Shown piece by piece: positions 10,531 to 43,529 of a stretch of DNA of 64,000 nt; the first letter of the stretch is position 1; every line of letters begins with the position of its first letter. Origin of the DNA: an uncultured Acidobacteriota bacterium (lineage in GTDB: Bacteria > Acidobacteriota > Thermoanaerobaculia > Multivoradales > UBA5704); NCBI GenBank assembly GCA_963770895.1, contig CAVYRF010000001.1, forward strand, positions 64,001-128,000, given 5' to 3'. The position numbers and the translations under genes were made by a program. Below the pieces are notes generated by a model. The model was given only the letters and a program-made list of their open reading frames with translations, had not been told where the DNA came from and did not search any database.

Positions 10531-10540
10531 AGGTGGGGTT
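10519..10540. terminator. Hairpin between convergent operons
   Basis: AACCCCAC-GTAAAG-GTGGGGTT. Confidence 0.5.
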
Positions 10541-10560
10541 GATGGGATGGGAAAGCGGGA

Positions 10561-11706
10561 TCACTCCCGCTCGGCGTAGGAGAGAAGGCCGCTGATTCGG
10601 TACTCGAAGGAGATGCGCTCGTCGGCGTGGGGGATCGAACGGGCGAGCGCGGTGCCGCCCTGGACGAGCTGCCAGAGGGTGCGGGCGCCGCCCTCCTCGA
10701 TCTTCGCCATTTCGATCACCGCCTCGCCCTCCTTCTTCGTGAAGTGGTGATAACGGAGCCAATCCAGAACCTTGGCGTCCGAGTCGACCTCCGTCACCGT
10801 GAGGTTCGCCGCCCGCGTGAGCTGTGCCTCCACCTCCCGGACGGAGGAGTCGGCATATGCCCGCAGATGCGGCAGCGCTTCCTTCGCGAACCGCTCCGCG
10901 GCGTTCTTCTTGTGGATGATCGTAAGCTCGCGCACGTCGGTTGCGCCCCACACGATGCGGTTGTCGCAGACGAAGTTATACAAGAACGTGGTGAGCCCGA
11001 AGGTGCGGGAGCCCACCTCCGAGTTCCAGACCATGAAGCCGCGGAAGAGATTGCGCTTCACGCCATCGGCCTCGAAGGAGACCGGGTTCTGGTCGTCCAC
11101 GAGGAAGATGAAGACATCGCGGTCGGAGGCGTAGAGGGTGGTGGCGCGCTTCGGGTTCTGCGCCGCGTAGCTTGCCGCCGGCACCCGCCAGCGGCCATCG
11201 GCGTTTAGGTCTCTGACCGCGCGCACGACCTCATGGTCGTAGATGCGGCCATAGTCGGGACCGACGAGGCAGCGCAGTTCGAGATGCCGCGCGCCGGGAC
11301 CATGCTCCTCGGTGCGGCTCATGAGCTGCACCCGGCCGGATGCCGCGAGGTGCCGGAGCCCCAGGTTCAGGGCGTGGGCTGCGAAGGCGGGACCGGCGGG
11401 AACGGTCGCGATCTCGCGGAGCCACTTTGCCGGGGTATGTGCCGCCGTGGCGAGCTGGCCGAGGCTCCAATGGGTAGGGTCGAGTTCCCCCAGCTCCTTG
11501 TGCTCGACCGTGAGCTGGCCGCCGGCGACCTCGCTTCCCCGGACGAGGAGGGAGCGGGTCGTGTCGGTGCGCACCCGGCTCTGGTGCGCACGGAGGTGGG
11601 TGGCCTCGTAGAGGTCATCGAGCGACAGGTAGCGCTCGTCGTCGGGGCGGCTGAACCACTCCTTCGAGGCGCGGGTCAGGGTCTTCTCTGCGGTGAGGGC
11701 GGACAT
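10561..11706 (-). CDS. DUF932 family protein (MGE-associated)
   Basis: EWFSRPDDERYLSL, TLYASDRDVFIFLVD, RGFMVWNSEVG, FVCDNRIVWG; AAGGAG RBS. Confidence 0.85.
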   Translation of the reverse strand: MSALTAEKTLTRASKEWFSRPDDERYLSLDDLYEATHLRAHQSRVRTDTTRSLLVRGSEVAGGQLTVEHKELGELDPTHWSLGQLATAAHTPAKWLREIATVPAGPAFAAHALNLGLRHLAASGRVQLMSRTEEHGPGARHLELRCLVGPDYGRIYDHEVVRAVRDLNADGRWRVPAASYAAQNPKRATTLYASDRDVFIFLVDDQNPVSFEADGVKRNLFRGFMVWNSEVGSRTFGLTTFLYNFVCDNRIVWGATDVRELTIIHKKNAAERFAKEALPHLRAYADSSVREVEAQLTRAANLTVTEVDSDAKVLDWLRYHHFTKKEGEAVIEMAKIEEGGARTLWQLVQGGTALARSIPHADERISFEYRISGLLSYAERE

Positions 11707-11764
11707 GGAAATCTCCTTGCCGGCGCGGGGGCCGGCCATTTATGCTGCTCGGGTTGGATTGGGG

Positions 11765-14418: not shown

Positions 14419-15951
14419 TCAGCGAGGCGCGGTGGTAGCGGCCCAGGCGGCGGGCGCGAGCTCGTGGAGGCGGTCGGGCGAATGGCTTGGCAGGCGCTCG
14501 AAGAGAGCGCGTAGGTAGGCGAAGGGCTCGACGCCGTGGCGCTTGGCGCTCGCGATGAGGCTGTAGAGCTTGGCGGCGCGGACCCCGCCAGCGTCGCTGC
14601 CGGCGAAGAGCCAGTTCTTGCGGCCGATCGCCACGCAACGAAGAGCCCGCTCCGAGGCGGAGTTGTCCGGGCCGAGCTCGCCATCGCTCAAGTAGCGCTC
14701 GAGGGCTGCCCACTGTCGCCGCGTGTAGCCGATGGCCGTGGCCAGGGCGCTCTTCGGTAAAACCTGTCGCTCCATGTCCTCGAGCCAGAGTTTGAAAGCG
14801 TCAAGAATCTCGCGAGAGGCCTCCTGCCGCCGAGCCAGGCGTTGCTCGAAATCCAGTTCCTTGTCGCTGGCGTCGCGCTCCACCTTGAACAGCTGGCTGA
14901 TAAAGGCCAACGCCGCGTATCCGCGAGTGTCGCCAGCGCCTATCGCCGCTTCGTGAAAGTAGCGGCGGCAGTGAGCCCAACATCCCACCTCCAACACTGA
15001 GCCAGAGGCATAGAGCGCGTCGTAGCCAGAATACGCGTCGGCTTGCAGAAAGCCTTGAAAGCCCTCGAGGAAGCGCCTGGGCCCGACTCCCTCTCGGGTC
15101 GGAGTGTAGTCATAGACGACATGGGGATGACCACGGTCGCCGAGATACACCCAGAGCCTGCCCTTGTGGGTTCCACCCTGCTCGTCGAGCACCGTGACCG
15201 GCGTGTCGTCGGTCTGAAGAATGCGGGAACCTCGGAGATCGCTCTGCATCCAGCTAACCAGGGGGCTAACCAACTCGGCAGCATCGGCAACCCAGCCGCA
15301 GAGCGTCGAACGCGACAGCGTAATGCCGTGCCGACTAAAGATCTGGCTCTGGCGGTAGAGTGGCAGGTGGTCACCGAACTTGCTGACAACGACATGCGCC
15401 AAGAGTCCTGCGCCCGGAAGGCCCTTATCGATTGCACGTGGCGGCTGGGGGGCGCGCTTGATCGACTCGTCGCAGCCCTTGCAGGCGAACACGCCGCGCA
15501 CGTGCTCAATGATCTTGAACGAAGCCGGCGTATAGTCGAGCTGTTCCGTCGTCTCCTCGTGGATCTTCGTGAGCTCTTCGCCGCAGGACGCACAACAGCG
15601 CTCGTGTTCAGGCAGCAGGTGCTCGACGCGCTCTCGTGGAAGATCCTTTGGCAGCGGCTGACGCTTCGCTACGCCATGCCGGCGATGTTTGCCCGCCTCG
15701 ACCTCTTGCTCAAGCCGCTCCAGCTGGGGCTGCGAGATTCCGAGGTCTCGCATCGCTTCAAACACCAGCTCAAGCTGCCTTGGATCCAGCTTCTCCGAAT
15801 GCTTGCGGAACAGTTTCCTGAAGAGGGCGTCCACCTCTGTCTGCAGATACGCATTCTTGCGCTCAAGCCGGTCGACCGCCCCCAACAGCTGAGCGATCAC
15901 TCCTCGCAGCAGGGCCGGATCGTCCGGAAGCGTGTTCGGATCGAGGTCCAT
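14419..15951 (-). CDS. tnpC: IS66 DDE transposase TnpC
   Basis: SKFGDHLPLYRQ, LQTDDT, LQADAYSGY, CWAHCRR, DNSASERALR. Confidence 0.95.
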   Translation of the reverse strand: MDLDPNTLPDDPALLRGVIAQLLGAVDRLERKNAYLQTEVDALFRKLFRKHSEKLDPRQLELVFEAMRDLGISQPQLERLEQEVEAGKHRRHGVAKRQPLPKDLPRERVEHLLPEHERCCASCGEELTKIHEETTEQLDYTPASFKIIEHVRGVFACKGCDESIKRAPQPPRAIDKGLPGAGLLAHVVVSKFGDHLPLYRQSQIFSRHGITLSRSTLCGWVADAAELVSPLVSWMQSDLRGSRILQTDDTPVTVLDEQGGTHKGRLWVYLGDRGHPHVVYDYTPTREGVGPRRFLEGFQGFLQADAYSGYDALYASGSVLEVGCWAHCRRYFHEAAIGAGDTRGYAALAFISQLFKVERDASDKELDFEQRLARRQEASREILDAFKLWLEDMERQVLPKSALATAIGYTRRQWAALERYLSDGELGPDNSASERALRCVAIGRKNWLFAGSDAGGVRAAKLYSLIASAKRHGVEPFAYLRALFERLPSHSPDRLHELAPAAWAATTAPR

Positions 15952-16336
15952 AGAATGGTTTCGTTCTATCAGATTCTTCTTGCGCCTGTCCACTCCCGCG
16001 ACGCCATCGGCGGCGCCTCCTGACAGTGGCAAGCTCGATCCCTTCAAGCACCATCACCAGGTCGGCGGCGGAGATCTCCGCTCTGTCGCCGGGATGGCCA
16101 GGAAACTCGAAGCGACCGGCCTCCAGGCGCTTATACCAAATCCACAGCCCGGAGCCGTCGAACGAGAGAATTTTCAGCCGGTCCCGACGCCGATTCCAGA
16201 ACACGAACAGAGCTCCCGAAAGAGGGTCCTCCAGCAGACGCTCGCGAACGGCTACCTCGAGGCCGTCGAACGACCGACGCATGTCAAGCGGCTCGCGACA
16301 GATCAGCACTCGCGTGGACAGCGGTAGCGTCAGCAC
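15863..16336 (-). CDS. tnpB: IS66 accessory protein TnpB
   Basis: PLDMRRSFDGL...LFVFWNRRRDRLKIL...YKRLEAGRF. Confidence 0.92.
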   Translation of the reverse strand: MLTLPLSTRVLICREPLDMRRSFDGLEVAVRERLLEDPLSGALFVFWNRRRDRLKILSFDGSGLWIWYKRLEAGRFEFPGHPGDRAEISAADLVMVLEGIELATVRRRRRWRRGSGQAQEESDRTKPFYGPRSEHASGRSGPAARSDRSAVGGGRPA

Positions 16337-16710: not shown

Positions 16711-18757
16711 GTCGTACCTCCTGGCAGAGCAGAGTGCCCGATTCCGGCTCACGGCGAAAGGTACGGTTCACCGAACGCTTACCGCGGTCGCGACCTCCTG
16801 GCACTCGTCCGCGTAGAGGAAGAAAGGCCGGCGTTCCTCCCGCTTCACCTCCTGGCGACTCATGCATGTCTGGTGGAACTTGGAGACGAGGAGACTTCCG
16901 AGGAGAGCGGCGTTCTCGTCGCCGATCGCGCCCTGCGAAAGACGCGCAAGGAAGATCTGGCCCCGGTCCACGATGGAACGCAGATCAAGCCGGCTCTCCC
17001 TGGCGCCCACGATCTGCCGTACCGTCTTATTTCTCAAGAAGCCATCGAGGCGGGTGAGGATCGCGCCCACGCTCTTGCCAGCCGCCAGAGCGAACTCATG
17101 GCGAAAGTATGAAAGGAGGTATGGGTCCTCGACCGCGGCAAGGAGCCGCTCGCGGGTCTGCCGGTCCACGAGGAACTCCCTGAGATCAAGGAGCGTGCTT
17201 CCGGGATTCTCCAGGAGCACCAAGACCGCGTTCCCCAAGACGCTCGTCATCTGGTCGCCCCAGGAGGTCGAGAAGCGCCGGAAGATGCCTACGAGATCCG
17301 AGGCAAGGAGGGTGCGCTCAAGCTCGCTGTGGGCTTCGAGGATGTTCCAGGCAACCGGGTATGCAGTGTCCGCCGGATCGAAGAGGATGGCGTCCGATAG
17401 GCGCCCCTCGGGAATGCGTCCCGCGATCTCGTCTATAAGATCGCCGTGCGGGTCGAGGACGCCCACGCCCAGGCCTTCTTCGATGTCCTGCATAATGAGA
17501 TCAATTAGGAGCGTGGACTTGCCGGAGCCCGAGGCGCCGATCACATGGAGATGCCGGAGCCGCAGATCATTCGGCAGCCGCACCGGCACCGTCTTCCCGT
17601 GGTGCACGTTCTCGCCGAGAAGAATCCCCGCGCCTTGGGAAAGTATGGGCGCCGATTTCGAGCGCCGTATCTCCCGCAGGAGCTTCGGCACCCGAACTGA
17701 AGCGCTTGGGAGGTGCGCGAGGGCCGCCAGCTCATCGCTCCCCACGATCATGCCCGGCCGGCGACTCACTCGGTCGAAGATCTGCTCGGTCGCGTCCTCG
17801 CCCTCCTCGGAGGCGAGCGGGAGAAGCTCGTTGCCGTGAGGCACGCCGAAGTGGGTCAGTGCTCCGGCAAGATCGCGCACGATCCGCCAAGCGCCGGTCT
17901 GGTCCTCACTCTTCGCCGCCACCCGGAGGCAGGCGGCATACAGAGGTCGGGAGACTTTCTCCCGCGCGGCCTTCGTGAGTTCGGGATAGTCGGCGAAGAA
18001 GGGCTCGCCGCCCCCGGTCACGACCGCGCGCATCACGCTCTCCGCCCACCGCTCGCGGACTCGCGCGAAGAGGACTTGCACGAGGCCGGCTTCGCCGGGC
18101 TCAAGCTCGGCCATCGCCCCGAAGAGCGGCAGCAAGGGATCAGGGTCGAGGGAGCGGAAGGAGGCCAAGGGCAGCATGAACTCGCGCGCCAGGCCGAAGT
18201 GTACGAGGACGGTCTCGCCCTCGTGCCTGGTCCACGTCTCACGCAACTTTTCCGACTCACCGGAGATCGAGACCTCAGGGAAGAAGGCGCGGAGCTGGTT
18301 GGCGAGAAGGCCCGCATCCGGGGCGCGGGAGACGAGCTGCACGCGGAGCTGATCCGATAGACCCAGCACCTCGAAGGCCAAGGGCAGCTCGGCGCCGGAG
18401 AGAGCGAGGAGGAAGCGCTCCGCGCTCTCCGCCTTCACCGCCTCGTCCCGCGGCAGGGAGACCACGCACTCGGTGAGCGGTTCGTCGGTCGCGAAGGTCT
18501 CTACCTCGGGCTCTTCGATCTGCGACAGCGCCGGCTCGGGCCGAGTCGGCGCGATGAGGCGACTGAGGAGACCTGGCCGGTGGCCGTCGTCCTTGATGGG
18601 CTGGAGGAAATATCCGGGGAAGGGTACGTAGGGCGGTTCGAGTGCGACCACGGAGGGAAACTCCTGCCAGCCCCGACCGCGCAGTTCCCAGGCGTAGAAC
18701 TGCTCGGTCAGGCGCTCCGGCAGGGTGGGACGGGTCATCCGCTATCCCGCGGCGCGA

Positions 18758-19438
18758 TTACCTCTTGCCGCCCGGCTGGAAAGGGATCTTGCGCGCCTCC
18801 TCGGAGAGACCGCGCACGCCTTGGGCGGAAGTCACCTGGTCGATGGCTTCCGTGACCGCATGGTGCACCGACTCGCGGAACATGATCGCGGTGTCCTCGT
18901 TGAAGTATGTCTGCGGACGGAAGATGAGGCCGTAGAAGAAGCCGGTGATCGGCATCGAGAGCACCGTAGGTTCACTTCCGGTCTCGCCATAGCGGACGAG
19001 GAACCCAAGGCCCACGAGGAGGCCGAGGAGGAGCAAGGGGCCGCCCACGACCGCTATGCACCCATGGCCTCCCTCGCTCCCAGGATTGTCGCTCGTGAAC
19101 GCACGAAACATGAAAAAGGCCACAGCCAGCATGACGATTATAAAGAGGAAGTCCAGGAGGACGCGCTTGATCTTCGCAAGCCACCAGGAGAAGAAGTATC
19201 CGGTCCCGAAAGGGGCGGCGCAGATGTCGAAGTTCAGGCCCTCGCGACTGATGCGGAGATAGGCGCGCTTGCCGGAGCCCACGCCGCTTTCCTTCCATTC
19301 CACCTCGGAGATTTTGAGGTTCGGAATCTCGCGGCGGGCAACGCCGGCTTTAACCAATTCATAAAACTCGAGCGATGAGGTCGCAAAGCCCTCGATCAGG
19401 GAGTGCCAGTGGCCTTCGACCTGCGGGTTCTTAGACAT
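18758..19438 (-). CDS. Conserved membrane protein (paralog of 54103..54768)
   Basis: FDICAAPFGTGYFFSWWL, 2-3 hydrophobic helices; directly upstream of the large ATPase. Confidence 0.8.
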   Translation of the reverse strand: MSKNPQVEGHWHSLIEGFATSSLEFYELVKAGVARREIPNLKISEVEWKESGVGSGKRAYLRISREGLNFDICAAPFGTGYFFSWWLAKIKRVLLDFLFIIVMLAVAFFMFRAFTSDNPGSEGGHGCIAVVGGPLLLLGLLVGLGFLVRYGETGSEPTVLSMPITGFFYGLIFRPQTYFNEDTAIMFRESVHHAVTEAIDQVTSAQGVRGLSEEARKIPFQPGGKR

Positions 19439-19891
19439 TTGTCTACCTCTGAATGGACAGCATCCACACGAAGCTGCGGCGATGTCAGCCTCTCCAAAAT
19501 GCAAACATCCTATACAAACCTGCCGAGGGTCGCATCGTCACATTTCCACATCTCCATATTGTCATTTGTCTTGCAGTGCGACCTCCACTTAAGATATTTC
19601 CATAGTCTATCTCGACTTCAGACAAGAATCGCGACGAAATGCGCTGCCCCGACCGCTCCAGGGGCGACGGGCCTACCGCTTTGGTAAAGGGCGAAGCGAC
19701 ACGAGAGCACCGGAACATGCGCGCATCCGGCACGCGAGACGAGGCCCCCTACTATGCCAATTGAACCCGGCCATCAGCGCACCTCGCATCGTTACGCACG
19801 CGAACTGCGAGTTGCCTCCCATCTCGAAGAACGAGTATGGATTGCGGCGAAGGTCATTAACCTATCCGCGATTTGGAAACGCGGCTAGGCA

Positions 19892-20971
19892 ATGAGCACC
19901 TACTTTAACGCCGCCGGCCTCTCGCTCCCCGTCGAGCCAATTCTTGGTCGAAAGGAATGGGCACCTACTACCGATCACTACGCGACCTATATAAACGGCG
20001 CTTCTATATTGATAACTGGAGCCGCTGGCTCGATCGGTAAGGCGCTAACACAGGATTGCATCCGCTTGGGTGGGAAGGTTGTCGCGCTCGATTCAGACGA
20101 AGAGCGATTGTTTAATCTTAAGCACGACACGATCGCCGGAAGGTGCACTATCGCTCCGGGCGACATAACTGATCGCGCTCAGATCGAAAAGATAGTGCAA
20201 CTTCATTCTCCTCAGATCGTATTTCACCTTGCCGCCCGCAAGCATGTTCCGTTTACGGAGAGTTCCGTGCGCTTCGCGACAGGCACTAATGTACTCGGCA
20301 CTCTCAACGTCCTGGATGCATGTCGAGATGCCCCATCAGTAACGCTTGTAGTGTTCACCTCCTCAGACAAGGCCATACACGCATCCAATGTCTTGGGGAT
20401 TACGAAGCGTATAGGCGAGCTTCTGTTTTTCGGCGCATCCGCCACCTCTAACAAGAGGAACATGCATGCTGTGGCGCGCTTGTGCAACGTGCTTGGCTCG
20501 TCCGGTACAGTAGTCGAGCACTTCGTGAGCAGCGCTCTTCGCGGGACACCTATGACGGTCTACTCTTCCAACTTGTCGCGCTACTTTATCTCTCTCACCG
20601 AAGCTGTCGCGCTTATTAAACTAACTGCATCCCTTTCGTCCCGATGCCTCCTAACCACTCTCCATGTTGGGTCGGCGATAATGATAGCGACGCTGGCTGA
20701 GAGGCTTGGAGAGACATTGCAGGCCCTCGGCTATCCTGCCAAATACGAGGTCATCGAGTCGCTGGATCACTCAGAATCCCGCCACGAGGCTCTTTGGTAT
20801 GACTCAGAGAAGGTAAGCATGGTGTCCGATGAACCCGGCTTGGCATGCATTCGGCCACCGGCACATCACATGATTGGTGACGGCGACTCCCTACGGGCAG
20901 AACTCGGCAAATGCGCAGATGACACTACTCTCCTTGCGATGCTAAGAGAGCTTGCGGCGGCAGCGAGCTAA
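19892..20971 (+). CDS. CapD/PglF-like NDP-sugar 4,6-dehydratase catalytic domain (Polysacc_synt_2 type)
   Basis: ILITGAAGSIG, FHLAARKHVP, TNVLGT, SSDKA, GITKRIGE, RLCNVLGSSGTV. Confidence 0.85.
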   Translation: MSTYFNAAGLSLPVEPILGRKEWAPTTDHYATYINGASILITGAAGSIGKALTQDCIRLGGKVVALDSDEERLFNLKHDTIAGRCTIAPGDITDRAQIEKIVQLHSPQIVFHLAARKHVPFTESSVRFATGTNVLGTLNVLDACRDAPSVTLVVFTSSDKAIHASNVLGITKRIGELLFFGASATSNKRNMHAVARLCNVLGSSGTVVEHFVSSALRGTPMTVYSSNLSRYFISLTEAVALIKLTASLSSRCLLTTLHVGSAIMIATLAERLGETLQALGYPAKYEVIESLDHSESRHEALWYDSEKVSMVSDEPGLACIRPPAHHMIGDGDSLRAELGKCADDTTLLAMLRELAAAAS

Positions 20972-20987
20972 GAACGGACGGCGGCTT

Positions 20988-21902
20988 ATGCAAGACTTCG
21001 TAGCCTTTCTGCGCCTCACTGCTATCGGCCTAATAATCCTCTTGGTGGCTGGAGTTCTCGTCTCGCGTTCAATTCTTGGGATTGTAACGAGCTACGGCGC
21101 TAGCGGGCCTGTATTATTTGCTCTTCTGGCCACTCTTGTTGGCCTCTTGGTAGAGCCGCTGCTGCGTCATCATCCTCTGAGCTCCGAGGTCAGAGCGATA
21201 TATGACCACGTCAAGGCGATAATGATTGCAGAAGTGGTTACAGCGCATGGGCCTGACGACTGTGAGCCCGCCATCAAGGACCTAGTGGCCACGCAAGAGC
21301 AGGCTCGCCCGCTTACGCCAGAGTTCTGGAATGTGGTAGCAAAAAGCGTCTACGACTATTTAATTTTCACGTTCCCAGGCACTGATACATATATGCGCAG
21401 AGTCAACCAGCAGATTAGGATCGCCTACTTCTACATACTGATTTGGTATGTTTACAGAGCGAGCATCTCTGCTAGTTTGCTCGCATTGGCCATTAAGTCC
21501 TTCGCCATTGCGAGCACAAACCCAATAGTTAGCTTTGTTGGTGCATTTATCGACCTTCGCTGGATAAACAGCGAAATCTTGCTTGGGCGCCAAAATATAC
21601 TTGAGCTATCGACTTCTCTCTGCATCGTCCTATTCTTGCTATACTTTCCTGCTCGATTTTTCCTGCGAGTCGGCCTAGAGACGATGTCTCTGGAGCTATA
21701 CAGTCGGCATATTGTTGTAATTCAGAACAGAGCCAAAATAGCCGAAATAACCCACCAATTGATGCGTGACGAGGTGGCTATGGCCGCCTTTGGGCGCCGC
21801 ACCTATTCTGTAAAAACTATTCTCGCGCGGAAGCCGTTGGTCTTAGGGTATTGGATTCTTTCTCCGGGACGAGATAGAATGAGAAAAGGAGTCGGCCAGT
21901 AG
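20988..21902 (+). CDS. Uncharacterised multi-pass membrane protein
   Basis: About 4-5 hydrophobic segments flanking a soluble loop; 16 nt after the dehydratase stop. Confidence 0.7.
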   Translation: MQDFVAFLRLTAIGLIILLVAGVLVSRSILGIVTSYGASGPVLFALLATLVGLLVEPLLRHHPLSSEVRAIYDHVKAIMIAEVVTAHGPDDCEPAIKDLVATQEQARPLTPEFWNVVAKSVYDYLIFTFPGTDTYMRRVNQQIRIAYFYILIWYVYRASISASLLALAIKSFAIASTNPIVSFVGAFIDLRWINSEILLGRQNILELSTSLCIVLFLLYFPARFFLRVGLETMSLELYSRHIVVIQNRAKIAEITHQLMRDEVAMAAFGRRTYSVKTILARKPLVLGYWILSPGRDRMRKGVGQ

Positions 21903-21959
21903 TTGCCATCCAGAGACGCGCACAGACCGTGGAAGACTGGCGAAACAGAGGAGAGCACA

Positions 21960-22523
21960 ATGAAACAGAAGAAAGACGCTGCCGAAACCATCTCAAGTGA
22001 AGTCCTCCTCAAGACGAAGCTCTTCGAGGTGCGCAAGGATCTCGCTCGGTTACCAGGAAGGGAAGCGGCGTCGGAGCTATTTGTAATTGGCTTTCGTGAG
22101 GCATGTTCTGTCGTCGCCCTAGACGACCAGAGGCGGATTGCTTTGTTGCGACAGTATCGTTACCCGATTAAGGATTATCTTTTGGAGCTGCCGGCCGGAA
22201 TCAGAGATGACGGCGAGTCGCGCGAGGAATGCGCTGTACGCGAATTAGAAGAAGAGGCTGGGCTGAAGGCTCGCGCCATTACGCCACTTTTGCTCGGTTA
22301 CTACCAGATGTGCAGTGTAGCCAGCCCTATGATGAACATTTTTCTTGCTGAGGACCTAGTGAAAACGAGGACCAAGCATGATGACCTGGAAATAATTAGT
22401 GAAGTTGAGTTCGTGGACTTGGAGGATGCACTGCGCAGTGTTAGGAAGGGAGAGATCAAGAGTGCATTCACAGTGATCGGTATCATACTTGCGGCGCAAG
22501 CGCTTCAAGAGAGGGGGCGATGA
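21960..22523 (+). CDS. NUDIX hydrolase (ADP-ribose/NDP-sugar pyrophosphatase-like)
   Basis: Full Nudix box GIRDDGESREECAVRELEEEAGL; LLRQYRYP. Confidence 0.92.
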   Translation: MKQKKDAAETISSEVLLKTKLFEVRKDLARLPGREAASELFVIGFREACSVVALDDQRRIALLRQYRYPIKDYLLELPAGIRDDGESREECAVRELEEEAGLKARAITPLLLGYYQMCSVASPMMNIFLAEDLVKTRTKHDDLEIISEVEFVDLEDALRSVRKGEIKSAFTVIGIILAAQALQERGR

Positions 22524-23374
22524 ACGCGAGCTGGAATCTGGCAGTTGTCAGCGATAAGGGTTCGACATCAAGCAATGACGACAGTTATTGTATCACTGCG
22601 CTTCCCGGGGGCATCAGGGTCGGTGTATTCGACGGAACTGGGACGGTTGCTAAGAAAGGGAAGCTGACTGGCGGGGATGCCGCTATTGCCGCCAGCGAGG
22701 TTGCTAGCGTTGCACCGCTCGATATGTCACCTTCTGCGATCCTGGGAATTGTTAACGCTCGTATTCGTGAAGTCAACCGGTCGGCAGGAAACGACCTTGC
22801 TGACCCAGTGACTCTGGCCGGTGCAGTGGGTGCGATCGTCACAGTTGATGCAGCCACAAGGGAGATCGAGTACGCACTGGTCGGTGACGTTACAGTTATC
22901 GTCGGTTATGCCCTCAATCAGTATAAGAGTGTTTCCGGAAGCGAGTTTAGGAAATTCTGTAGGCGCACTTACCTGGCAATGGCCGAAGCTAGGCGCAACG
23001 GAATACTCGAACCTGATGAGCAAATCGAATGGGCGCGATCTCAGTTAATAGATAATCGTCGAATGGCGAATGCGGCCGATGGCCATGGCCACGGTATTCT
23101 TAATGGAATGATCTCCGTTGCTCAATATGAGAAGGTAGGGCGGCTTCACCGGGCAGATGGTGAGTTCATGGCTATAGTGACTGACGGAATGCTGGCGCCT
23201 GCGCTGGCGATAGACTCACAGGAAGACTTGGAGGCGGACATTAATATAATTAGGGACCGCGGACTGCAAAGTCTTCTGGAATCGACGCGCGCGATCGAGA
23301 ACTCTGATCCATTGCTCTTCAGGCCAAGAACAAAGGTTCACGATGACGCGACAGGAGTCATTATTAGGTTCTAG
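22520..23374 (+). CDS. PP2C/PPM-like phosphatase
   Basis: NDDS, GVFDG, VGD, VTDG and HDDAT metal-binding motifs; ATGA overlap with the NUDIX gene. Confidence 0.8.
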   Translation: MNASWNLAVVSDKGSTSSNDDSYCITALPGGIRVGVFDGTGTVAKKGKLTGGDAAIAASEVASVAPLDMSPSAILGIVNARIREVNRSAGNDLADPVTLAGAVGAIVTVDAATREIEYALVGDVTVIVGYALNQYKSVSGSEFRKFCRRTYLAMAEARRNGILEPDEQIEWARSQLIDNRRMANAADGHGHGILNGMISVAQYEKVGRLHRADGEFMAIVTDGMLAPALAIDSQEDLEADINIIRDRGLQSLLESTRAIENSDPLLFRPRTKVHDDATGVIIRF

Positions 23375-24555
23375 ATCTGTGCCACCGGCAAACGTAGTGT
23401 GACCGTCTCCCCACTGAATGGTCGTGTCACCGCGCCATCCACCATAAGCCGCACGTAGATCTCGTGGTTCGGGAGGTTCGTGAGGTCTCTCGCCTCGAAC
23501 TCCGGGGCGAACTCCTGGGCCAAGATCCGGGCATCGGTCGGCCCCACCCGGAAGGAGATGAGGGTGCCGACGTTCCCAAGGATCGCATGCCGGATCTCCG
23601 GGTCGAGCTGGTCAAGATACTGGTTGGCGAGGATCAGGGAGACCCGGTATTTCCTCAGCTCCGAGAGCATGGCGGTCAGGTTCTTGGTGGCGAAGGTCTG
23701 GAACTCATCGAGGTAGAGGAAGAAGTCCGCCCGGCGCTCCTCCGGCAGCTCCGCCCGCGCCAGGCCATGGAGCGCGATCTGAGCTACGAGGAGGGAGCCC
23801 AAGAGCATCGCCGGCCCTTCGCCCAGCCTTCCCTTCGAGAGATTTACGAGGAGGATGCGCCGCTCGTCCATGATCCGCCGCAGATCGAGGCCCCGTGGGA
23901 CGGAAAGAACCCGGCGCATCACGGGATCGGTCAGGAATGCCCCGAGCTTGTTCTCCAATGGGGCGACGACAGTAGCCCGGAGGCTCTTCGAGTATTCCTC
24001 GTACTCCTCGCGCCAGAAGGAGCGCACGGCAGAGTTCGTGACCCGCTCAACAGCGCGTTCGCGGTAGCCAGAGTCGTGGAGGAGGCGGCCAATGTCGCCC
24101 ATGGTGGCCTCCGGCTGTTCGAGGAGGGCGAAGAGCGCATTGCGCAGGAGGTGTTCTACTCTCGGCCCCCAGGAGTCGAGCCAGGTCTTCTTGAAGACCT
24201 CCACAAGCCCGGCGACCGCGAGGGAGCGCTTCGCAGGAGGAACCGCGGCCAGGGGGTTGAAGCCAAAGCCGGAACCGGTCGCAGGATCGAAGAGGACGAC
24301 ATCCGATCGGCGCCGCTCGGGAATCCAAGCGTGAAGCCGCTCCACGAGATCGCCGTGCGGGTCCACGACCGCGCAGCCATCGCCCTTGCCGATGTCCTGC
24401 CGCAGGAGGGTCTGAAGGAGCGTGGACTTGCCGGCGCCGGTTTTGCCGATCACGTACATATGGGAGCGGCGGTCGGCGCGCCGGATGCCGAAGATACGGC
24501 GGTTACCGCGGAAGTTCGTGCGTGCGAAGAAGGAAAGATCGTGCGCGTCCGGCAT
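23371..24555 (-). CDS. Small VirD4/TraD-like ATPase (paralog of 43530..44687)
   Basis: HMYVIGKTGAGKS, DPHGDL, LYLDEFQ, LANQYLDQL. Confidence 0.9.
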   Translation of the reverse strand: MPDAHDLSFFARTNFRGNRRIFGIRRADRRSHMYVIGKTGAGKSTLLQTLLRQDIGKGDGCAVVDPHGDLVERLHAWIPERRRSDVVLFDPATGSGFGFNPLAAVPPAKRSLAVAGLVEVFKKTWLDSWGPRVEHLLRNALFALLEQPEATMGDIGRLLHDSGYRERAVERVTNSAVRSFWREEYEEYSKSLRATVVAPLENKLGAFLTDPVMRRVLSVPRGLDLRRIMDERRILLVNLSKGRLGEGPAMLLGSLLVAQIALHGLARAELPEERRADFFLYLDEFQTFATKNLTAMLSELRKYRVSLILANQYLDQLDPEIRHAILGNVGTLISFRVGPTDARILAQEFAPEFEARDLTNLPNHEIYVRLMVDGAVTRPFSGETVTLRLPVAQI

Positions 24556-24607
24556 TGCCTCATCTTCGCTCGTAGCGGCGCGCGGGAAAGGCCGCTCGCT
24601 ATGCCGC

Positions 24608-25126
24608 CTACGGATTCGCGAGATGGTCCGTGCTTGCGCTGGATCGCGCGACCTGTGCCGCCGCGAGGCCGACGGCATCGAACACGTTCATGCGCGGGTC
24701 CTCCGTCATCCAGACCTTGCGCTTCCACGGCAGCCGGTCGCCGAGGTCCGGGAAAATCTCGGCGAGACGCACCGCCACCTCGTACTTGCCCTTGCCCGGC
24801 GCGAAGGTATCGAGAACGGTGAGGCGCGAGACCCTCTCGACCGGCACGCCGCGCTTCAATGCAAGGCGTTCCAGGGAGCGAATCTCCCCTCGGGCGCGCT
24901 TGCGGCGTCGGGCGCCAGGGGCCGTGGTGTCCTCAAGGACAAGGACCGCCGGGTGGTGCTTGGAGAGGAGAACTTCCACCTTGCGCACGAGCGCGCCGGT
25001 CTTCGGGAGAGCGGTCCTCTGCCCGCGGTCCACGAGGTGGAGTGGCGCTTCAAGGACGGCGAAGGCAAAGCCCGTTCTCGTAGGGTCGATGGCGATATAG
25101 GTAATGGGCGCGGGGAGGTTCGACAT
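24608..25126 (-). CDS. RuvC-like (RNase H fold) nuclease/resolvase
   Basis: IAIDPTRTGFAFAVLE, VLVLED, NVFDAVGLA. Confidence 0.65.
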   Translation of the reverse strand: MSNLPAPITYIAIDPTRTGFAFAVLEAPLHLVDRGQRTALPKTGALVRKVEVLLSKHHPAVLVLEDTTAPGARRRKRARGEIRSLERLALKRGVPVERVSRLTVLDTFAPGKGKYEVAVRLAEIFPDLGDRLPWKRKVWMTEDPRMNVFDAVGLAAAQVARSSASTDHLANP

Positions 25127-25127
25127 C

Positions 25128-25451
25128 TCAGGCGGCGCGATGGGAGGCGGAGCCGACCGATGCTCCCCGGTGTTTCTCTTTCAGCACTTCGAGCTTCCGC
25201 CGCCGCGCTTCAACCTCCCTCTGGATCGCCTCGTATCTACCGCGGAAGAGCTTCGCGACCGGCTCCCCGAGCGCGGCCTCGTAAGCAAGGCCGGATTCCA
25301 AGGAAGGGATGCGAAGTCCCGACTCGTAGCGCGACACCTTGGCCGGGGTCGAGGCGCCCAGGAGATACGCGAGCTCCTTCTGCGAGAGGTGCGCGTGGCG
25401 TCGGTAGCTTTTGAGGTAGTAGTGGAGTGGGCGTCCGTCGAAATGCATCAT
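25128..25451 (-). CDS. XRE-family HTH protein (paralog of 42639..42959)
   Basis: YRRHAHLSQKELAYLLG...VSRYESGLRIP. Confidence 0.85.
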   Translation of the reverse strand: MMHFDGRPLHYYLKSYRRHAHLSQKELAYLLGASTPAKVSRYESGLRIPSLESGLAYEAALGEPVAKLFRGRYEAIQREVEARRRKLEVLKEKHRGASVGSASHRAA

Positions 25452-25608
25452 GGCGACATGAAGAATAAGCGGCGAGCGAGGTCGTTTGTAGAGGGAGAAA
25501 TGTTCCGCGGGCGGAACGTTCTCAGAGCGCAGACTGAAAGGAGAAGATTGGAGGGGGCTATCCTGCCTGCGGCGAAGCGACGGCAGAGACAAAAACAATT
25601 ACTTTCAT

Positions 25609-25637
25609 ATTATACTACAATATTGTTATCTCGTCAA
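25609..25637 (-). promoter_or_regulatory. Sigma70-type promoter of the HTH-RuvC-ATPase operon
   Basis: TTGACG-17 nt-TATAAT on the minus strand; positionally conserved with 42450-42478. Confidence 0.75.
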
Positions 25638-25749
25638 TTGCAAGGTGAGCGAGGGCAGCCCCCGTCCGGGGACTTGAGGACATCGGGGACATTCTGCGGG
25701 AATGAGAAATGTGACGGGTTGTGTCCGGCGGACCTTTGCGCCATATAGC

Positions 25750-27081
25750 TCAGAACTCCGCCGCGGGGCGCTTCATGTCCCCCATGTCCCCGGTCGGCAC
25801 GCCGTATTTCAGAAAGAGCCTGGCGAGAATCGCCTTGTCGGAGTCCGGGATCACGAAGATGCCGCCGTGGCGCTTCTCGGGGTGAAGGCCGAGCTTGCGG
25901 CGCAGGAGCCAGCCGATCCACTTCGGAGAGACCTTGCGGTCGTAATCGTTCTCGTGGCGATCGGCAAAGAGCGCGGTTATCTCCTTCACTGAGAGCGGGG
26001 TCTCGGCGGCGGCCAGGTCGCGGATGACTTCGAGGAGCTGCGCCTCGGTCTCCATGCCGCGGTCAGCGACGAGCTGACGCTCGTAGCCGCGGGCCAGGTC
26101 CCGGAGACGCCCCCTCGCCTCCTCGTCCTCGATCGTCGCCATGAGGGGCGCGAGGATCTGCGCCAGGCGCGGCTCGAGGCCGCGATCGGCGGCGAGCGCG
26201 AGGTCGCGCGGTCTTGTGAGGTTGCGGCAGCGGAAGAGAAGGAGCTGGTTTCGGAGCTGCCTGGCCTCGTCCCTGAGCGCCGCCGGCAGGTTCAAGGGGA
26301 TGTCGTCGCGCAGGGGCCGGCCGCCCATCTCTTCGGTCAGGCACCGGGATTCGAGCGCCTTGTCCTCGAAGAAGCCACGGGTGGCGACGAGCTTGGGGCC
26401 GAAGACCGCGTAGGCCCGCGGATCGAACTCCCGGCGGTTCGTGGATTCGCTTCGCAAGACCGGGAAGCCCCTGGCGTTCCCGTTGTTCAAGATCTTCACC
26501 ACCTCGGCCTTCTCGTCTGAGAGCCGGAAGTCGGCCTCGTCGACGATCAAAGTCCCCCGGAAGGCGTCGAGGATGCGGAAGATGGGCGAGACGGTCGAGG
26601 TCCCGGAGGCGAAGATGGGCTTGTAGCAGAGGGAGCCGACCGCAAGGAGGAAGCGGCTTTTGCCGCTTCCGTAGTCTCCCCGGACCCGGAGGTAGGGCAA
26701 CTCCTCGAAGGCATCGTAGAGCCAGGTGAAGAGCACGTAGGAGGCGGCGAGTTCCTCGAAGGCCGGCGAGAGATCCACGTAGCGGTGGATGAAAGAACGG
26801 ACCGCGGAGAGCAGCTCGCCATCCGTCCCGTACTCCTCGGGCGCCGAGGGGAAGAGCACCACGTCATGTACGAGGAGGTTGTTCCTGGGGTTCATGGGCA
26901 CCAGGCGGCCGGCGGCCACCTCGACCCACGGCTCCATGGTCCAGCTCCCGGACTCGTAGCGGACGAAGGCGGTCTCGCCGGCAGCCGGGTCGTAGACCAT
27001 CTCGACCACGACGTCGCCGGGGAGAACCGCGCCGGCAGACGGGATGCCGCGCTCTCTCTTCTGCTCTTCCTTCCCGCTCAT
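25750..27081 (-). CDS. Primase-associated P-loop ATPase / helicase-like replication protein
   Basis: LRVRGDYGSGKSR, TLIVDEAD; ATGA overlap with the primase gene. Confidence 0.7.
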   Translation of the reverse strand: MSGKEEQKRERGIPSAGAVLPGDVVVEMVYDPAAGETAFVRYESGSWTMEPWVEVAAGRLVPMNPRNNLLVHDVVLFPSAPEEYGTDGELLSAVRSFIHRYVDLSPAFEELAASYVLFTWLYDAFEELPYLRVRGDYGSGKSRFLLAVGSLCYKPIFASGTSTVSPIFRILDAFRGTLIVDEADFRLSDEKAEVVKILNNGNARGFPVLRSESTNRREFDPRAYAVFGPKLVATRGFFEDKALESRCLTEEMGGRPLRDDIPLNLPAALRDEARQLRNQLLLFRCRNLTRPRDLALAADRGLEPRLAQILAPLMATIEDEEARGRLRDLARGYERQLVADRGMETEAQLLEVIRDLAAAETPLSVKEITALFADRHENDYDRKVSPKWIGWLLRRKLGLHPEKRHGGIFVIPDSDKAILARLFLKYGVPTGDMGDMKRPAAEF

Positions 27082-28037
27082 GGGCGGGGCCATTTCTCCA
27101 ATCGGTCGAGCGCGGCCAAGAAGCCCAGGCCCTCCTTGGCCCGGAGGAATGCGATCTGGTCGCCGTGAGCGCCGCAGGCGAAGCAGTGGTAGGTGTCGGT
27201 AAAGGGGAAGACAGCGAGCGAGGGGCGGCGGTCATCGTGGAAGGGACAGCGGCCCATGAGGACGCGGCCGGCGGCCTGGAGCTTCACGTAGGCGCCCACG
27301 ACCTCGGCGATCGGGACGCGCTTCTTCGCGCCTTGCACTCGCTTGTACCCGGAGGGCGAGAGTGCCGGATAGGGCGAGGGTGGCATGCTCTTCAGGGTCC
27401 GCTCCTCGGAGAGCGGCTCGGCCTGGCGCAGGAGCGCCTCGAAGTCCGCGGCGGTGCGCTTCAGCCGGACGAAGTAGTCGGTGAGGTCGCCTTTGTCGCC
27501 CACCTCCTCAGGCAACGTCACGATCCGGGCATGCTGGACAAGGTGCGCGACCCGCAGGGCGCCCTGCTTCCCGGCATCGTCCCGGTCGAAGCAGACGTAA
27601 ACCTCGGGGATACCAAAGAAGAAACGCGCCCACTCCTCGGGGAAGGCCCCAGCGCCGCCGGTCGAAGTCACCGCATGGAAGCCCTTCGTTTCAAGGACCA
27701 GGCGGTCGAACTCGCCCTCGCAGATAACGATGCGCTCCGGTTGATGCTGGAAGAACTCCTCACCGTAGAGGGCGACCCGGCTGCCGGGGGTGGACATCAT
27801 CTTTGGGCTCATGCGGTCCTCGGGATCGCGGGCCAGGCGGAAGGAGACGAGCGCGCCTTCGCGGTTCCTTACAGGGATCGTGGTGCGGAAGCCGTTCCAG
27901 CCGAGGAGGAAGCGGTGAATCACGTCATCGGAGAGTCCGCGGGTTTCCATGAGGTATGTGCGGATGCGGGCCGGGAGCCGGCGGTGGAAGCCCAAGGCGG
28001 TCGAATGATGATCGAAGACGGCACGGTCGAAAGCCAT
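27078..28037 (-). CDS. DNA primase (Toprim domain plus C-terminal CHC2 zinc finger)
   Basis: ICEGEFD, CFDRDDAG; CPFHDDRRPS...YHCFACG. Confidence 0.88.
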   Translation of the reverse strand: MAFDRAVFDHHSTALGFHRRLPARIRTYLMETRGLSDDVIHRFLLGWNGFRTTIPVRNREGALVSFRLARDPEDRMSPKMMSTPGSRVALYGEEFFQHQPERIVICEGEFDRLVLETKGFHAVTSTGGAGAFPEEWARFFFGIPEVYVCFDRDDAGKQGALRVAHLVQHARIVTLPEEVGDKGDLTDYFVRLKRTAADFEALLRQAEPLSEERTLKSMPPSPYPALSPSGYKRVQGAKKRVPIAEVVGAYVKLQAAGRVLMGRCPFHDDRRPSLAVFPFTDTYHCFACGAHGDQIAFLRAKEGLGFLAALDRLEKWPRP

Positions 28038-28116
28038 GCTCCAAGGGTAGCGACCAGGAGCAAACGGCAAAGAGGGTTTTTCTTTCCGCAGGCGGAGCGT
28101 TGCCGCATTGCCGGAC

Positions 28117-28794
28117 TCATGCCGCTTGCCGCAACTTTGCCGGATCGGAGACGCGCCGCCGCGCGATCTCGGCATAGGCCGGATCGATCTCGATACCAAG
28201 GAAGCGGCGGCCTAAATCCTTCGCCGCCTTGCAGGTGGTGCCGGAGCCGGCGAAGGGATCGAGCACGAGCTCGCCCGGCGCGCTGCTCTTCTGGATCAAG
28301 TAGCGGAGCATGTCCTCCGGCTTCTCGGTGGGGTGGTCCCGCCGGCGACCGGCGCGCTTGAAGAAGAGGACGTTCGCGTCCCGGTGTCCATTGAGACGCC
28401 GCCGACCTTTGTGCCCGAAGAGCAGATATTCGGTCCGGTTCGCGTAGTCGCCCTTCAGGTCGCCGGCCGTGTGCTGGTCCTTCACCCACACGAGGAGGCG
28501 CTTCACCTTGAACCCGGCGGCGGCCATCTCCGAGCGGAAGGTTGCCAGCCCGTACTCGTTACAGAAGACGTAGGCGTGGGTATCGGGCCGCAGTGCCCGG
28601 TACGCCTCGCGGATAAAGGGCCGAAACCAGGAGAGGTCGTCGTCGCCCACGATGGGGCGGCTGCCGGCGCGGGGCCGGTAGCGCATGCCGTAGGGCGGGT
28701 CAGTGAGAAGCAGGTCGACGGACTCGGCAGGAAGCCCGGCGAGAACCTCGCGGCAGTCGCCCAGGATGATCTTGTTTATGAGGCGGCGAGCCAT
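28117..28794 (-). CDS. N4-C/N6-A DNA methyltransferase (beta class), orphan
   Basis: LTDPPY, HPTEKP, VLDPFAGSGTT. Confidence 0.92.
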   Translation of the reverse strand: MARRLINKIILGDCREVLAGLPAESVDLLLTDPPYGMRYRPRAGSRPIVGDDDLSWFRPFIREAYRALRPDTHAYVFCNEYGLATFRSEMAAAGFKVKRLLVWVKDQHTAGDLKGDYANRTEYLLFGHKGRRRLNGHRDANVLFFKRAGRRRDHPTEKPEDMLRYLIQKSSAPGELVLDPFAGSGTTCKAAKDLGRRFLGIEIDPAYAEIARRRVSDPAKLRQAA

Positions 28795-28999
28795 GACTCC
28801 GATTCTCGGCTCCCAGAGAGCATGCGCAAAGAGAGCGCGGCGTTCCGCAGACGGAGTATCGCTTGCCTTTTTCTATCCTGGAGGTAGCCTGTCTCAAACG
28901 TCAAAAATCTCCATCCATCACAATGAATAATCATCTGTTCCGCGCACGGAAAGGATTCCCCGCTCCCTCGGCTCGATCGCGCGGCATACGCTCTCGCGT

Positions 29000-29185
29000 A
29001 TGCGATTTAAGGACAATGACCTGCGGGAGTTCGTGGCGATCTGGAAACGAGTCTTCAACGAGGAGATCTCGCTCGCCGATGCACGCCACCGCGCCTCGCA
29101 GCTCGTCACCCTCTACCTCGCGCTCGCCAAGCGCCTGCCCGAGGAAATAGACAATCCGCCAGCTCATCCACCCACCTCGTCATGA
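29000..29185 (+). CDS. Small hypothetical protein coupled to LSR2
   Basis: LREFVAIWKRVFNEEISLADA...QLVTLY; ATGA overlap with the recombinase. Confidence 0.65.
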   Translation: MRFKDNDLREFVAIWKRVFNEEISLADARHRASQLVTLYLALAKRLPEEIDNPPAHPPTSS

Positions 29186-30792
29186 AATACTTCCTCTATT
29201 GCCGCAAGTCCTCTGAGGCCGAAGACCGCCAAGTGCTCTCGATCGAATCGCAGAAAAGCGAGATGGCGCGCCTCGCCGCTGGCTGGACCGAAGGAGACGC
29301 GATCGTCGCGACCTTCGAGGAGTCCATGAGCGCGAAGGCGCCAGGTCGCCCCATCTTCGAGGAGATGCTCCGGCGGGTCGAGAAAGGCGAGGCCGATGGC
29401 GTCGTCGCCTGGCACCCGGACCGCCTGGCCCGCAACTCGGTGGACGGCGGCCGGATCATCTTCCTCCTGGACAAGGGCTCGCTCAAAGATCTGAAATTCG
29501 CAACCCTGACCTTCGAGAACAACCCGCAGGGCAAGTTCATGCTCTCGATCATCTTCGGGTACTCCAAGTATTACGTGGACTCCCTCTCCGAGAACATCCG
29601 CCGCGGCATCCGAACCAAGCTAGAAAAGGGCTGGCTCCCCAACATGGCCCCGACCGGCTACCTGAACGATCGGGAAGGGCGCACGATCATCCCTGACCCG
29701 GAGCGCTTCCCCTTGATGCGCCGCATGTGGGACCTGATGCTCACTGGCACGTACTCGCCCCGGCAAATCCTTGAGATCGCGACCGACCAATGGGGACTCC
29801 GCACGAAGAAGCGCAGGCGCACCGGCGGCAAGGCGCTCACCCTCGGCGCCCTCTACAAGATGTTCGGCCAGCCCTTCTACGCGGGCATCATCGAGCGCCA
29901 CGGGAGGACGTATCCCGGCAAGCACGAGCCCATGGTGACCCTCGACGAGTTCGAGCGCGTCCAGGCCCTTCTCGGTCGCGCAAACCGGCCGCGGCCGAAG
30001 GAGCGCGCCTTCGCCTTCACCGGGCTCATCCGTTGCGGCGTCTGCGGCTGCGCGGTGACCGCCGAGGAGAAGGAGAAACCCTCGGGTCTCCACTTCGTTT
30101 ACTACCACTGCACGCGCAAAAGGAAGCCCGGCTGCAAGGAGCCGGCTATCTCCCTTCCGAAGCTTGAAGAGGAGATCCTCAAGTTCATCTCGGAGCTATC
30201 CATCCCCGAGGAGGTCCATCGCTGGGTGCTCGCTCGGCTCGAGGAGGCCGCTGGGGAAGAGACCTCGCTCAATGCCGTAGGACAGCGCTCCGCAGAGGCG
30301 GCAATGGCTGCGGTCCTGCGGCAGCTCGACAACCTCACTCTCATGCGGGTCCGGGAACTCATCTCCGAAGAGGAGTTCGTGAAGCAGCGGGAGGCGCTAA
30401 GCCGCGAGAAGCTTCGCTTGACTCAGCAAGCGGATGCGACACCCCAAGGATGGTTAGAACCGGCCAAGATGCTCGCTTCCTTCAATCTTCGCGCCATTTC
30501 CTGGTTCCAGGCACGTGATCTCGAAATCCAGCGCCTTATCCTCGCTGTCGCAGGATCGAACTCGACCCTCAAGGGCCGGGAAGTCAATATCGACGCGGCG
30601 AAACCCTTTCAGCGGCAGCCGGGAGGCGTCGACTTTCCTAAGATGTGGAGCACTGTAGAGGACGTTAGAACCGGAATCCAGAGTCATGATCCCCAGATGC
30701 TTGATCTGATCGACAAACTCCGCAGGCTTCACGCGCTCGTACAGGATAGAGGACTGGCGGACGACACCAAGGAAGAGATGTGTGCCGTGTAA
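29182..30792 (+). CDS. Large serine recombinase (LSR2)
   Basis: YCRKSS catalytic motif, DRLARN, recombinase domain, Zn ribbon CGVCG...YYHC, coiled coil. Confidence 0.95.
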   Translation: MKYFLYCRKSSEAEDRQVLSIESQKSEMARLAAGWTEGDAIVATFEESMSAKAPGRPIFEEMLRRVEKGEADGVVAWHPDRLARNSVDGGRIIFLLDKGSLKDLKFATLTFENNPQGKFMLSIIFGYSKYYVDSLSENIRRGIRTKLEKGWLPNMAPTGYLNDREGRTIIPDPERFPLMRRMWDLMLTGTYSPRQILEIATDQWGLRTKKRRRTGGKALTLGALYKMFGQPFYAGIIERHGRTYPGKHEPMVTLDEFERVQALLGRANRPRPKERAFAFTGLIRCGVCGCAVTAEEKEKPSGLHFVYYHCTRKRKPGCKEPAISLPKLEEEILKFISELSIPEEVHRWVLARLEEAAGEETSLNAVGQRSAEAAMAAVLRQLDNLTLMRVRELISEEEFVKQREALSREKLRLTQQADATPQGWLEPAKMLASFNLRAISWFQARDLEIQRLILAVAGSNSTLKGREVNIDAAKPFQRQPGGVDFPKMWSTVEDVRTGIQSHDPQMLDLIDKLRRLHALVQDRGLADDTKEEMCAV

Positions 30793-42959: not shown

Positions 42960-42960
42960 G

Positions 42961-43485: not shown

Positions 43486-43529
43486 GCGGCATTCTTTCCG
43501 GGCAACGCACCGCCGCCGACAATGGAGCT

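Follow-up and report, generated by a model that had tools for sequence, protein, structure and literature searches.

A rare four-gene cargo operon in an Acidobacteriota integrative element, encoding an anchor-less PglF-type dehydratase, an orphan membrane protein, a Nudix hydrolase and a PP2C-fold phosphatase

What brings a nucleotide-sugar dehydratase, a membrane protein of an undescribed family, a Nudix hydrolase and a PP2C-like phosphatase together in one gene row of a mobile element? The question was raised by four genes, A to D (19892-23374), in a stretch of 64,000 nucleotides (nt) from an uncultured Acidobacteriota bacterium (GenBank assembly GCA_963770895.1, contig CAVYRF010000001.1, positions 64,001 to 128,000), which is called the window below. 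We found that the four-gene unit is a real, foreign and very rare cargo operon of a soil bacterium. It forms a discrete 4-kb foreign block (19430-23401) with a single operon, which replaces the usual content of a cargo slot in a high-GC host. A preliminary description of the same DNA had reported four co-oriented and tightly spaced genes of lower GC content than the backbone, located in a variable cargo slot and coding for an NDP-sugar (nucleoside diphosphate sugar) dehydratase, a membrane protein, a NUDIX protein and a PP2C-like protein. The spacing, the composition (by 1-kb windows and codon positions), the slot (by self-comparison and other slot copies) and all four domain calls were borne out, as detailed below.

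A bounded block of foreign composition

The genes are separated by 16 nt (A-B) and 57 nt (B-C), and C and D overlap in an ATGA. Motifs resembling Shine-Dalgarno sequences were observed upstream of C and D, and the annotated starts of B (ATG), C and D agreed with the N-termini of their homologues. All four were regarded as real genes because of the Pfam matches of A and C, the homologues of B and D, and the PP2C fold of D. The GC content of the cassette in 1-kb windows was 0.50-0.54, compared with 0.645-0.675 in the flanks, and the GC content at third codon positions (GC3) was 0.53-0.59 across A-D, compared with 0.755-0.900 across 8 flanking genes. Because both values differ from the surroundings, A-D look like a single acquisition from a lower-GC donor.

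The borders of the slot were set by self-comparison of the window DNA. It was found that 16787-19429 resembled 56737-54109 at 85%, and that 23402-25540 resembled 44677-42554 at 77%. Since the backbone similarity stops at 19429 and resumes at 23402, the unique segment was defined as 19430-23401, comprising A-D and a 462-nt leader. The backbone on the left border was 92% identical to a copy in another genome of the genus (G003). On the right border, the ATPase resembling type IV coupling proteins (T4CP) was 92.5% identical to the copy at 43530-44687; its stop overlapped that of D by 4 nt, and its last residues were encoded by cassette-side DNA. As these final residues lie outside the backbone similarity (23371-23402), the recombination joint was placed inside the 3' end of the T4CP-like gene.

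The search of sequencing runs for the cassette returned three DNA runs, all from one soil study, and no RNA run. Identical low-depth contigs in these runs spanned the cassette and no cassette-less form was seen. The runs may derive from the same sample as the window assembly. The left joint was bridged by a metagenome contig covering 19365-20151, and a second contig departed at 19422, as expected of a sibling copy. In the leader, a relic of the CapD membrane domain was sought by six-frame reading and by tblastn with 14 CapD N-terminal parts, which gave noise only (best E of 0.064); two small open reading frames (ORFs) were present there, neither with a Pfam match. No Rfam match was obtained for the leader and the cassette region, promoter and terminator scans stayed at chance level, and no convincing flanking repeats were found.

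Table 1. Genes of the block and features at its borders (positions in the window; aa, amino acids)
Feature	Positions	Strand	Description
Gene A, 359 aa	19892-20971	+	ORF; soluble NDP-N-acetylhexosamine (HexNAc) 4,6-dehydratase of PglF/WbpM/CapD type (extended short-chain dehydrogenase/reductase)
Gene B, 304 aa	20988-21902	+	ORF; all-helical membrane protein with four transmembrane helices, undescribed very rare family
Gene C, 187 aa	21960-22523	+	ORF; Nudix hydrolase, ADP-ribose/NDP-sugar pyrophosphatase clade, altered specificity/catalytic loop
Gene D, 284 aa	22520-23374	+	ORF; divergent phosphatase of PPM/PP2C fold
Leader (462 nt; GC 0.548)	19430-19891	.	without conserved ORF
T4CP-like ATPase, 435 aa (right border)	23371-24678	-	TrwB_AAD_bind, T4SS-DNA_transf, TraG-D_C
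orf248, conserved backbone gene (left border)	18758-19504	-	76% identical to orf221 (54103-54768)
T4CP/HerA-like gene (T656), after orf248	16768-18738		ends early beside IS66 element; 91% identical to residues 1-652 of T997
IS66 transposase	14419-16047

Four proteins and their relatives

A matched Pfam Polysacc_synt_2 (PF02719) with an E-value of 9.4e-54 and 183 bits (cut-off 20.2). Its closest solved relative was Campylobacter PglF/WlaL (5bjw/5bju; E of 1e-35, residues 12-272), and the alignment to PglF started at the linker right after the transmembrane region of PglF. The motifs TGAAGSIG (the GxxGxxG site for nicotinamide adenine dinucleotide, NAD), SDK and LxxxK were present in A. According to excerpts of a published account (PMC8987622), the Tyr-less signature of PglF and WbpM is TDK...Mx3K, without catalytic Tyr, and the soluble part of WbpM is active without its membrane anchor. 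Compared with this signature, the SDK...Lx3K of A retained the Asp and the two Lys and likewise has no Tyr, but Thr is replaced by Ser and Met by Leu. A was 28-37% identical to 29 CapD relatives of the same phylum and retained every column that was invariant in their alignment, including GxxGxxG, S/T-D-K and xxxK. In the substrate domain it deviated at many columns that are nearly invariant among the relatives, e.g. F197L, G198C, P209E, Q214S, T224Y and H225S, and its substrate may therefore differ.

Most of the phylum relatives of A were open frames of roughly 640-700 aa. In 14 of the 15 that were examined, 264-500 in-frame residues preceded the match, and the remaining one had 54; in A, an in-frame stop was located two codons upstream of the start. 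Judged from its sequence, A is apparently a competent PglF-type dehydratase without the usual N-terminal membrane anchor. B was considered as the missing anchor and rejected, since no sequence similarity was found between the CapD transmembrane domains and B. The host genome (G000) contained no other CapD/PglF-type gene at E<=1e-20, compared with 141 of 300 other phylum genomes that had one, so A would bring a new activity to the host. The phylum tallies for CapD and for the B profile include two unpublished genomes (G083 and G108), on which no individual claim depends. No homologue of B, C or D was found within ~1.5 kb of the 29 phylum CapD loci.

B had no match in Pfam, NCBIfam, PADLOC or PHROG. 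Two homologues, 38-40% identical with E of 1e-45 to 1e-47, were obtained among 5.8 billion clusters, and the profile search gave 14 proteins at E<=1e-3 in 1.84 billion representatives. Neither B alone nor its 3-sequence profile found a relative in the genome contigs, and in 400 other phylum genomes the profile found nothing credible; one marginal match (E of 2.8e-4, in an 895-aa frame of an unpublished genome) was disregarded. The neighbours of B in the Atlas were unnamed clusters only. The hydropathy plot exhibited four hydrophobic spans. In the structure prediction of the membrane protein, which the preliminary description had proposed, the AlphaFold2 (AF2) model was confidently all-helical (mean predicted local distance difference test, pLDDT, of 84.5; predicted template modelling score, pTM, of 0.76), but no informative structural match was obtained. 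Foldseek gave 0 matches in the PDB at E<=1e-3, which is not proof of a new fold, and the best VIA-align Z of 7.8 was non-specific. Conserved motifs rich in Arg, His and Glu were found (EPxLRxHP, RVNxQxRxAYFY, FPARFF and ELxSRH), which lie at the predicted cytoplasmic helix ends in the presumed topology. Complex prediction of A and D with B as partner gave 0.00 against a mark of 0.32, a value that counts neither for nor against binding.

The sole Pfam match of C was NUDIX (PF00293; E of 8.1e-16). Its score against NCBIfam NudE was 73.7 bits, under the equivalog cut-off of 169, and its closest PDB match was the Mycobacterium tuberculosis ADP-ribose pyrophosphatase (ADPRase) 1mk1 (Rv1700), with E of 4.5e-16 over residues 8-179, i.e. 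near full length. The Nudix box of C was complete (Gx5Ex7REUxEExGU), reading GIRDDGESREECAVRELEEEAGL, and its residues E86, R94, E95, E98 and E99 were invariant across 14 sequences. The loop Glu, which serves as base in some ADPRases, was present in 12 of 12 aligned relatives and was Pro in C and in its 81% identical homologue P0011. A one-residue insertion just before this Pro was also observed in both proteins (C residues about 120-135). For the C/P0011 subfamily, these changes may point to a new substrate or a new site of cleavage.

For D, the score against Pfam PP2C_2 (PF13672) was only 16.4 bits, below the gathering cut-off of 24, although its homologue P0005 (55% identical) and distant relatives do carry PF13672 in precomputed tables. 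The AF2 model (pLDDT 78.6, pTM 0.84) gave 149 Foldseek matches in the PDB at E<=1e-3, with probability 1.00 to PPM1B, Stp1, PstP, RsbX and tPphA and template modelling scores of up to 0.76 by target. The acidic metal-binding motifs of PPM/PP2C enzymes are ED, DG, DG and DD/DN; in D, the acidic residues D21, D38-G39, D222-G223 and D275-D276 were invariant in 6 sequences. No basic residue was found before the N(E/D)D motif in D and P0005. The Atlas neighbours of D were PP2C_2 clusters of roughly 285 aa. D appears to be translationally coupled to C via the ATGA.

Outside the window, the DNA of the cassette was absent from 60 related genomes, in which only its last 100 nt (backbone) recurred, together with one 35-nt match at chance level. 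Nothing was found for the cassette DNA or B in the plasmid collection, in which A matched ordinary CapD genes only (~33% identity), and viral contigs gave no match to the B profile, P0005 or P0011. With the D profile, only distant relatives (22-33% identical) were retrieved from metagenomes, and the contig of P0005 was not among them; one 55% match spanned just 37 residues. No homologue of A, B or C was found in 28 metagenome loci with distant D relatives, and the upstream neighbour was a Nudix gene, 14 nt away, in 1 of 15 judged loci. One candidate for a close D homologue (L026) was rejected as a frameshifted actinobacterial PP2C-like gene. P0011 and P0005 are both Joint Genome Institute (JGI) proteins occurring on 2 contigs, the longest being 3322 bp. 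Because they match in source, contig number and longest contig, these homologues of C and D probably lie side by side on one metagenome contig. The contigs bearing close homologues of B, C and D are short, which limits the result that they were not found together.

The plasmid match to D was a 278-aa PP2C_2 protein, 31% identical, on a Brevibacillus laterosporus megaplasmid (NZ_CP011076.1; L042:1888-7206). Its gene is followed, 16 nt on, by one for a Metallophos_2 phosphoesterase, and a small RelA/SpoT-type alarmone synthetase is encoded 3 kb upstream. This locus is another pairing of the PP2C subfamily of D with a nucleotide-phosphoesterase.

The cargo slot and the surrounding element

For comparison of the slot, the second copy in the window was used together with four others (L038-L041), taken from two genomes that belong to the same genus. 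In all five comparison copies, the T4CP-like gene was followed by other content, and both borders (T4CP-like and orf248-like) were present in three of them: the window's second copy, L038 and L039. A protein with a Ser/Thr kinase and tetratricopeptide repeats (kinase-TPR) was part of the content in 4 of 5 copies. The full set, consisting of kinase-TPR, an extracytoplasmic function (ECF) sigma factor and a large surface protein with immunoglobulin-like (Ig) domains, was found in the window's second copy and L039, and L040 and L041 carried the kinase-TPR protein with insertion sequences (IS) or other extras. In L038 (2093-6465, G003), the slot instead encoded a CBS-domain protein, a reprolysin-like metalloprotease of 799 aa and a protein in which two domains for peptidoglycan binding were found. 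With three kinds of content in six copies, the variable cargo slot was judged to be real. The other contents of the slot included no recognised defence system, their PADLOC matches being generic kinase-domain ones only.

The block of L038 was GC-poor as well (0.53-0.59). The usual slot set (window 44750-54028; L039:148-8223; L041:2003-7940) comprised a kinase-TPR protein of ~920-1000 aa, the ECF sigma factor and an unknown protein, together with a ~1150-aa He_PIG/PKD surface protein. The set resembles a signalling unit borne by the element, with the surface protein under its control.

The flanking backbone encoded two kinds of T4CP-like ATPase, a conserved protein of 220-250 aa, a primase, a DNA methylase, serine recombinases and many insertion sequences. 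Two diverged and partly broken backbone copies were observed in the window (16768-30792 and 42554-59496), with T4CP-like proteins of 385/435 aa, orf221/248, T4CP/HerA-like proteins of 997/656 aa and serine recombinases as paired genes. A 286-bp stretch at 14452-14737 was 99.65% identical to 39628-39912. The surrounding mobile DNA also encoded RadC-like JAB, DUF932 and DUF4238 proteins (9509-11739; 32959-33969), whose genes are typical accessory genes of integrative elements.

Possible roles and known systems

The reading that we tentatively prefer, as a possible rather than a probable one, is that the operon is a horizontally acquired, self-contained module for nucleotide-sugar conversion and turnover at the membrane. 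The enzyme classes are backed by the evidence above; the substrates, the order of the steps and the role of B are what we infer. A would oxidise and dehydrate an NDP-HexNAc, similar to uridine diphosphate N-acetylglucosamine (UDP-GlcNAc), to an NDP-4-keto-6-deoxy sugar. C would cleave the pyrophosphate of this product or of a related NDP-X, giving nucleoside monophosphate and sugar phosphate, and D would remove the phosphate or regulate the set. At the cytoplasmic face of the membrane, B would receive, transfer, take up or export the product; the cluster of Arg, His and Glu conserved in it resembles a site that binds phosphate. As a net result, the envelope might gain an unusual 6-deoxy-keto/amino sugar, or a UDP-HexNAc pool might be drained in a controlled way. 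The shared composition and exact borders of the block, the operon layout, the enzyme classes and motifs of A, C and D, the lack of another CapD-type gene in the host and the probable recurrence of C with D speak for this reading, as do the envelope or regulatory genes found as other contents of the slot. A route from NDP-sugar via sugar-1-phosphate to free sugar, which the preliminary description had put forward, is chemically plausible and depends on D, an enzyme of PP2C fold, having a small molecule as its substrate.

Several observations weigh against the turnover module. A-D together were found nowhere else in the 60 related genomes, the 400 phylum genomes, the plasmids, the viral contigs and the 28 metagenome loci, and only the C-D pair probably recurs. 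A lack of joint conservation elsewhere was the refuting condition set in the preliminary description, and within these collections the result so far falls on that side. The two closest homologues of B lie on contigs (1331 and 2220 bp) that are outside the match lists of C and D, and the distant D relatives adjoin sigma factors or housekeeping genes in neighbourhoods that vary. The deviations of A in its substrate domain and the Pro in place of the loop Glu of C count in the same direction. PP2C enzymes are known as protein phosphatases, and no enzyme of this fold is known to us to use a small molecule as its substrate. Among the 48 larger window ORFs scanned, no aminotransferase, reductase or glycosyltransferase that could use a 4-keto sugar was present, and no flippase either. 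The last result agrees with the preliminary description, which had noted the absence of aminotransferase, glycosyltransferase and flippase, and we share its conclusion that the genes do not make up a standard glycan locus.

The same description had raised a signalling or anti-phage system, which found no support. In such a conflict system, directed against phages or other elements, the soluble enzymes would sense or make a nucleotide signal, or drain an essential UDP-sugar or ADP-ribose-type pool, with B as the membrane effector that halts the cell or the invader. A foreign, compact and rare cargo in a slot swapped between copies of a mobile element would suit this role, as would a membrane protein of an undescribed family and the position of C in the ADP-ribose-type Nudix clade. 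Among the defence profiles of PADLOC-DB 2.0, C gave a weak match only to the generic Nudix candidate PDC-S07 (E of 1.2e-5, over the Nudix box), which also speaks for this role. On the other side, A, B and D matched no model, and no recognised defence system occupies the slot in the other copies. Neither a nuclease nor a sensor NTPase nor a domain of a known effector was found, the distant D relatives occur in housekeeping contexts, and no such system was met in a survey, largely of abstracts, on Nudix, PP2C and defence. A defence role is possible but unsupported, and we consider a conflict system unlikely. It could also be imagined that the genes are a new conflict module of mobile elements, in which A makes a reactive keto-sugar nucleotide, C and D process it (D as the first small-molecule PP2C), and B responds to it, as a sensor or by being gated. 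The sugar-nucleotide derivative would then act as signal or as poison and settle what becomes of the cell or of an invading element; this is very unlikely.

The genes might not belong to one pathway at all. C and D, perhaps with B, could be a phospho-signalling or housekeeping pair, i.e. a protein phosphatase and a Nudix 'house-cleaning' enzyme, with A as an unrelated passenger. Only C and D are apparently coupled in translation and probably recur together, the Streptomyces-plasmid PP2C relatives of D come after sigma-factor genes, and the slot is usually occupied by genes for a Ser/Thr kinase and an ECF sigma factor. Yet A-D share their composition and one bounded block, A and B are just 16 nt apart, and the cassette has no kinase, anti-sigma factor or STAS partner, so we give this pairing little chance. 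The block could also be a decaying, non-functional mosaic, in which a truncated capD fragment and hitch-hiking genes were left amid insertion sequences. The region is indeed rich in IS elements and truncated backbone genes, A is without the membrane domain of most relatives, and A and C deviate at otherwise conserved positions. However, four full-length open frames with starts matching homologues were found, A, C and D retain their catalytic motifs, no relic of a transmembrane domain was detected upstream of A, and the models of B and D fold confidently; decay is quite unlikely. Antibiotic sugar pathways, in the excerpts of PMC8987622, have Nudix-superfamily 2,3-dehydratases after 4,6-dehydratases, which would allow a classical deoxysugar route with C as an EvaA-type enzyme on the 4-keto-6-deoxy product of A. 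The subunits of EvaA are described in these excerpts as two-domain, whereas C is a single domain of 187 aa with PF00293 only and relatives in the ADP-ribose pyrophosphatase clade, and no ketoreductase, aminotransferase or glycosyltransferase was found; this route is barely credible.

If the four proteins act together, an unusual nucleotide sugar would be made or destroyed by a minimal and portable route that needs no glycosyltransferase, and a first function would be obtained for a membrane family without relatives of known structure. Such a module would also test whether an enzyme of PP2C fold can use a small phosphorylated metabolite. Should the genes instead be unrelated passengers, the block would be ordinary orphan cargo. 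Its appeal lies mainly in the orphan membrane family and in the uncommon coupling of a Nudix gene to a PP2C gene, next to a PglF-type enzyme without anchor. In addition, the work documents a defined swap slot of an integrative element in soil bacteria, which is a good place to seek further accessory modules.

The gene combination was not described in the literature on Nudix, PP2C, defence and nucleotide sugars or deoxysugars, in a survey largely at the level of abstracts. The combination is new and joins divergent representatives of enzyme families already known to one undescribed membrane family, but a single instance does not establish a system. A shares PF02719, the NAD motif, the S/T-D-K triad and the xxxK dyad without Tyr with PglF (Campylobacter jejuni, 5BJU), WbpM and CapD, but it lacks their membrane domain, has the Ser and Leu swaps in the signature and sits outside a glycan cluster. 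C aligned near full length, with a complete Nudix box, to ADP-ribose/ADP-sugar pyrophosphatases (Rv1700, 1MK1; NudF; Escherichia coli NudE), from which it differs by the sub-cut-off NudE score, the Glu to Pro change in the loop and the coupling to a PP2C gene. The fold and the acidic metal motifs of D are those of bacterial PPM/PP2C enzymes (tPphA, PstP, Stp1 and RsbX); unlike them, D has a Pfam score below gathering, no basic residue before N(E/D)D and no kinase, sigma or STAS partner. GDP-mannose mannosyl hydrolase is the Nudix enzyme of the colanic acid cluster. There, as with EvaA-type enzymes, a protein of Nudix fold is encoded beside an NDP-sugar 4,6-dehydratase, as it is here; but those enzymes belong to complete glycan or antibiotic clusters that include transferases, whereas the present operon has four genes, one of an undescribed family and one for a PP2C.

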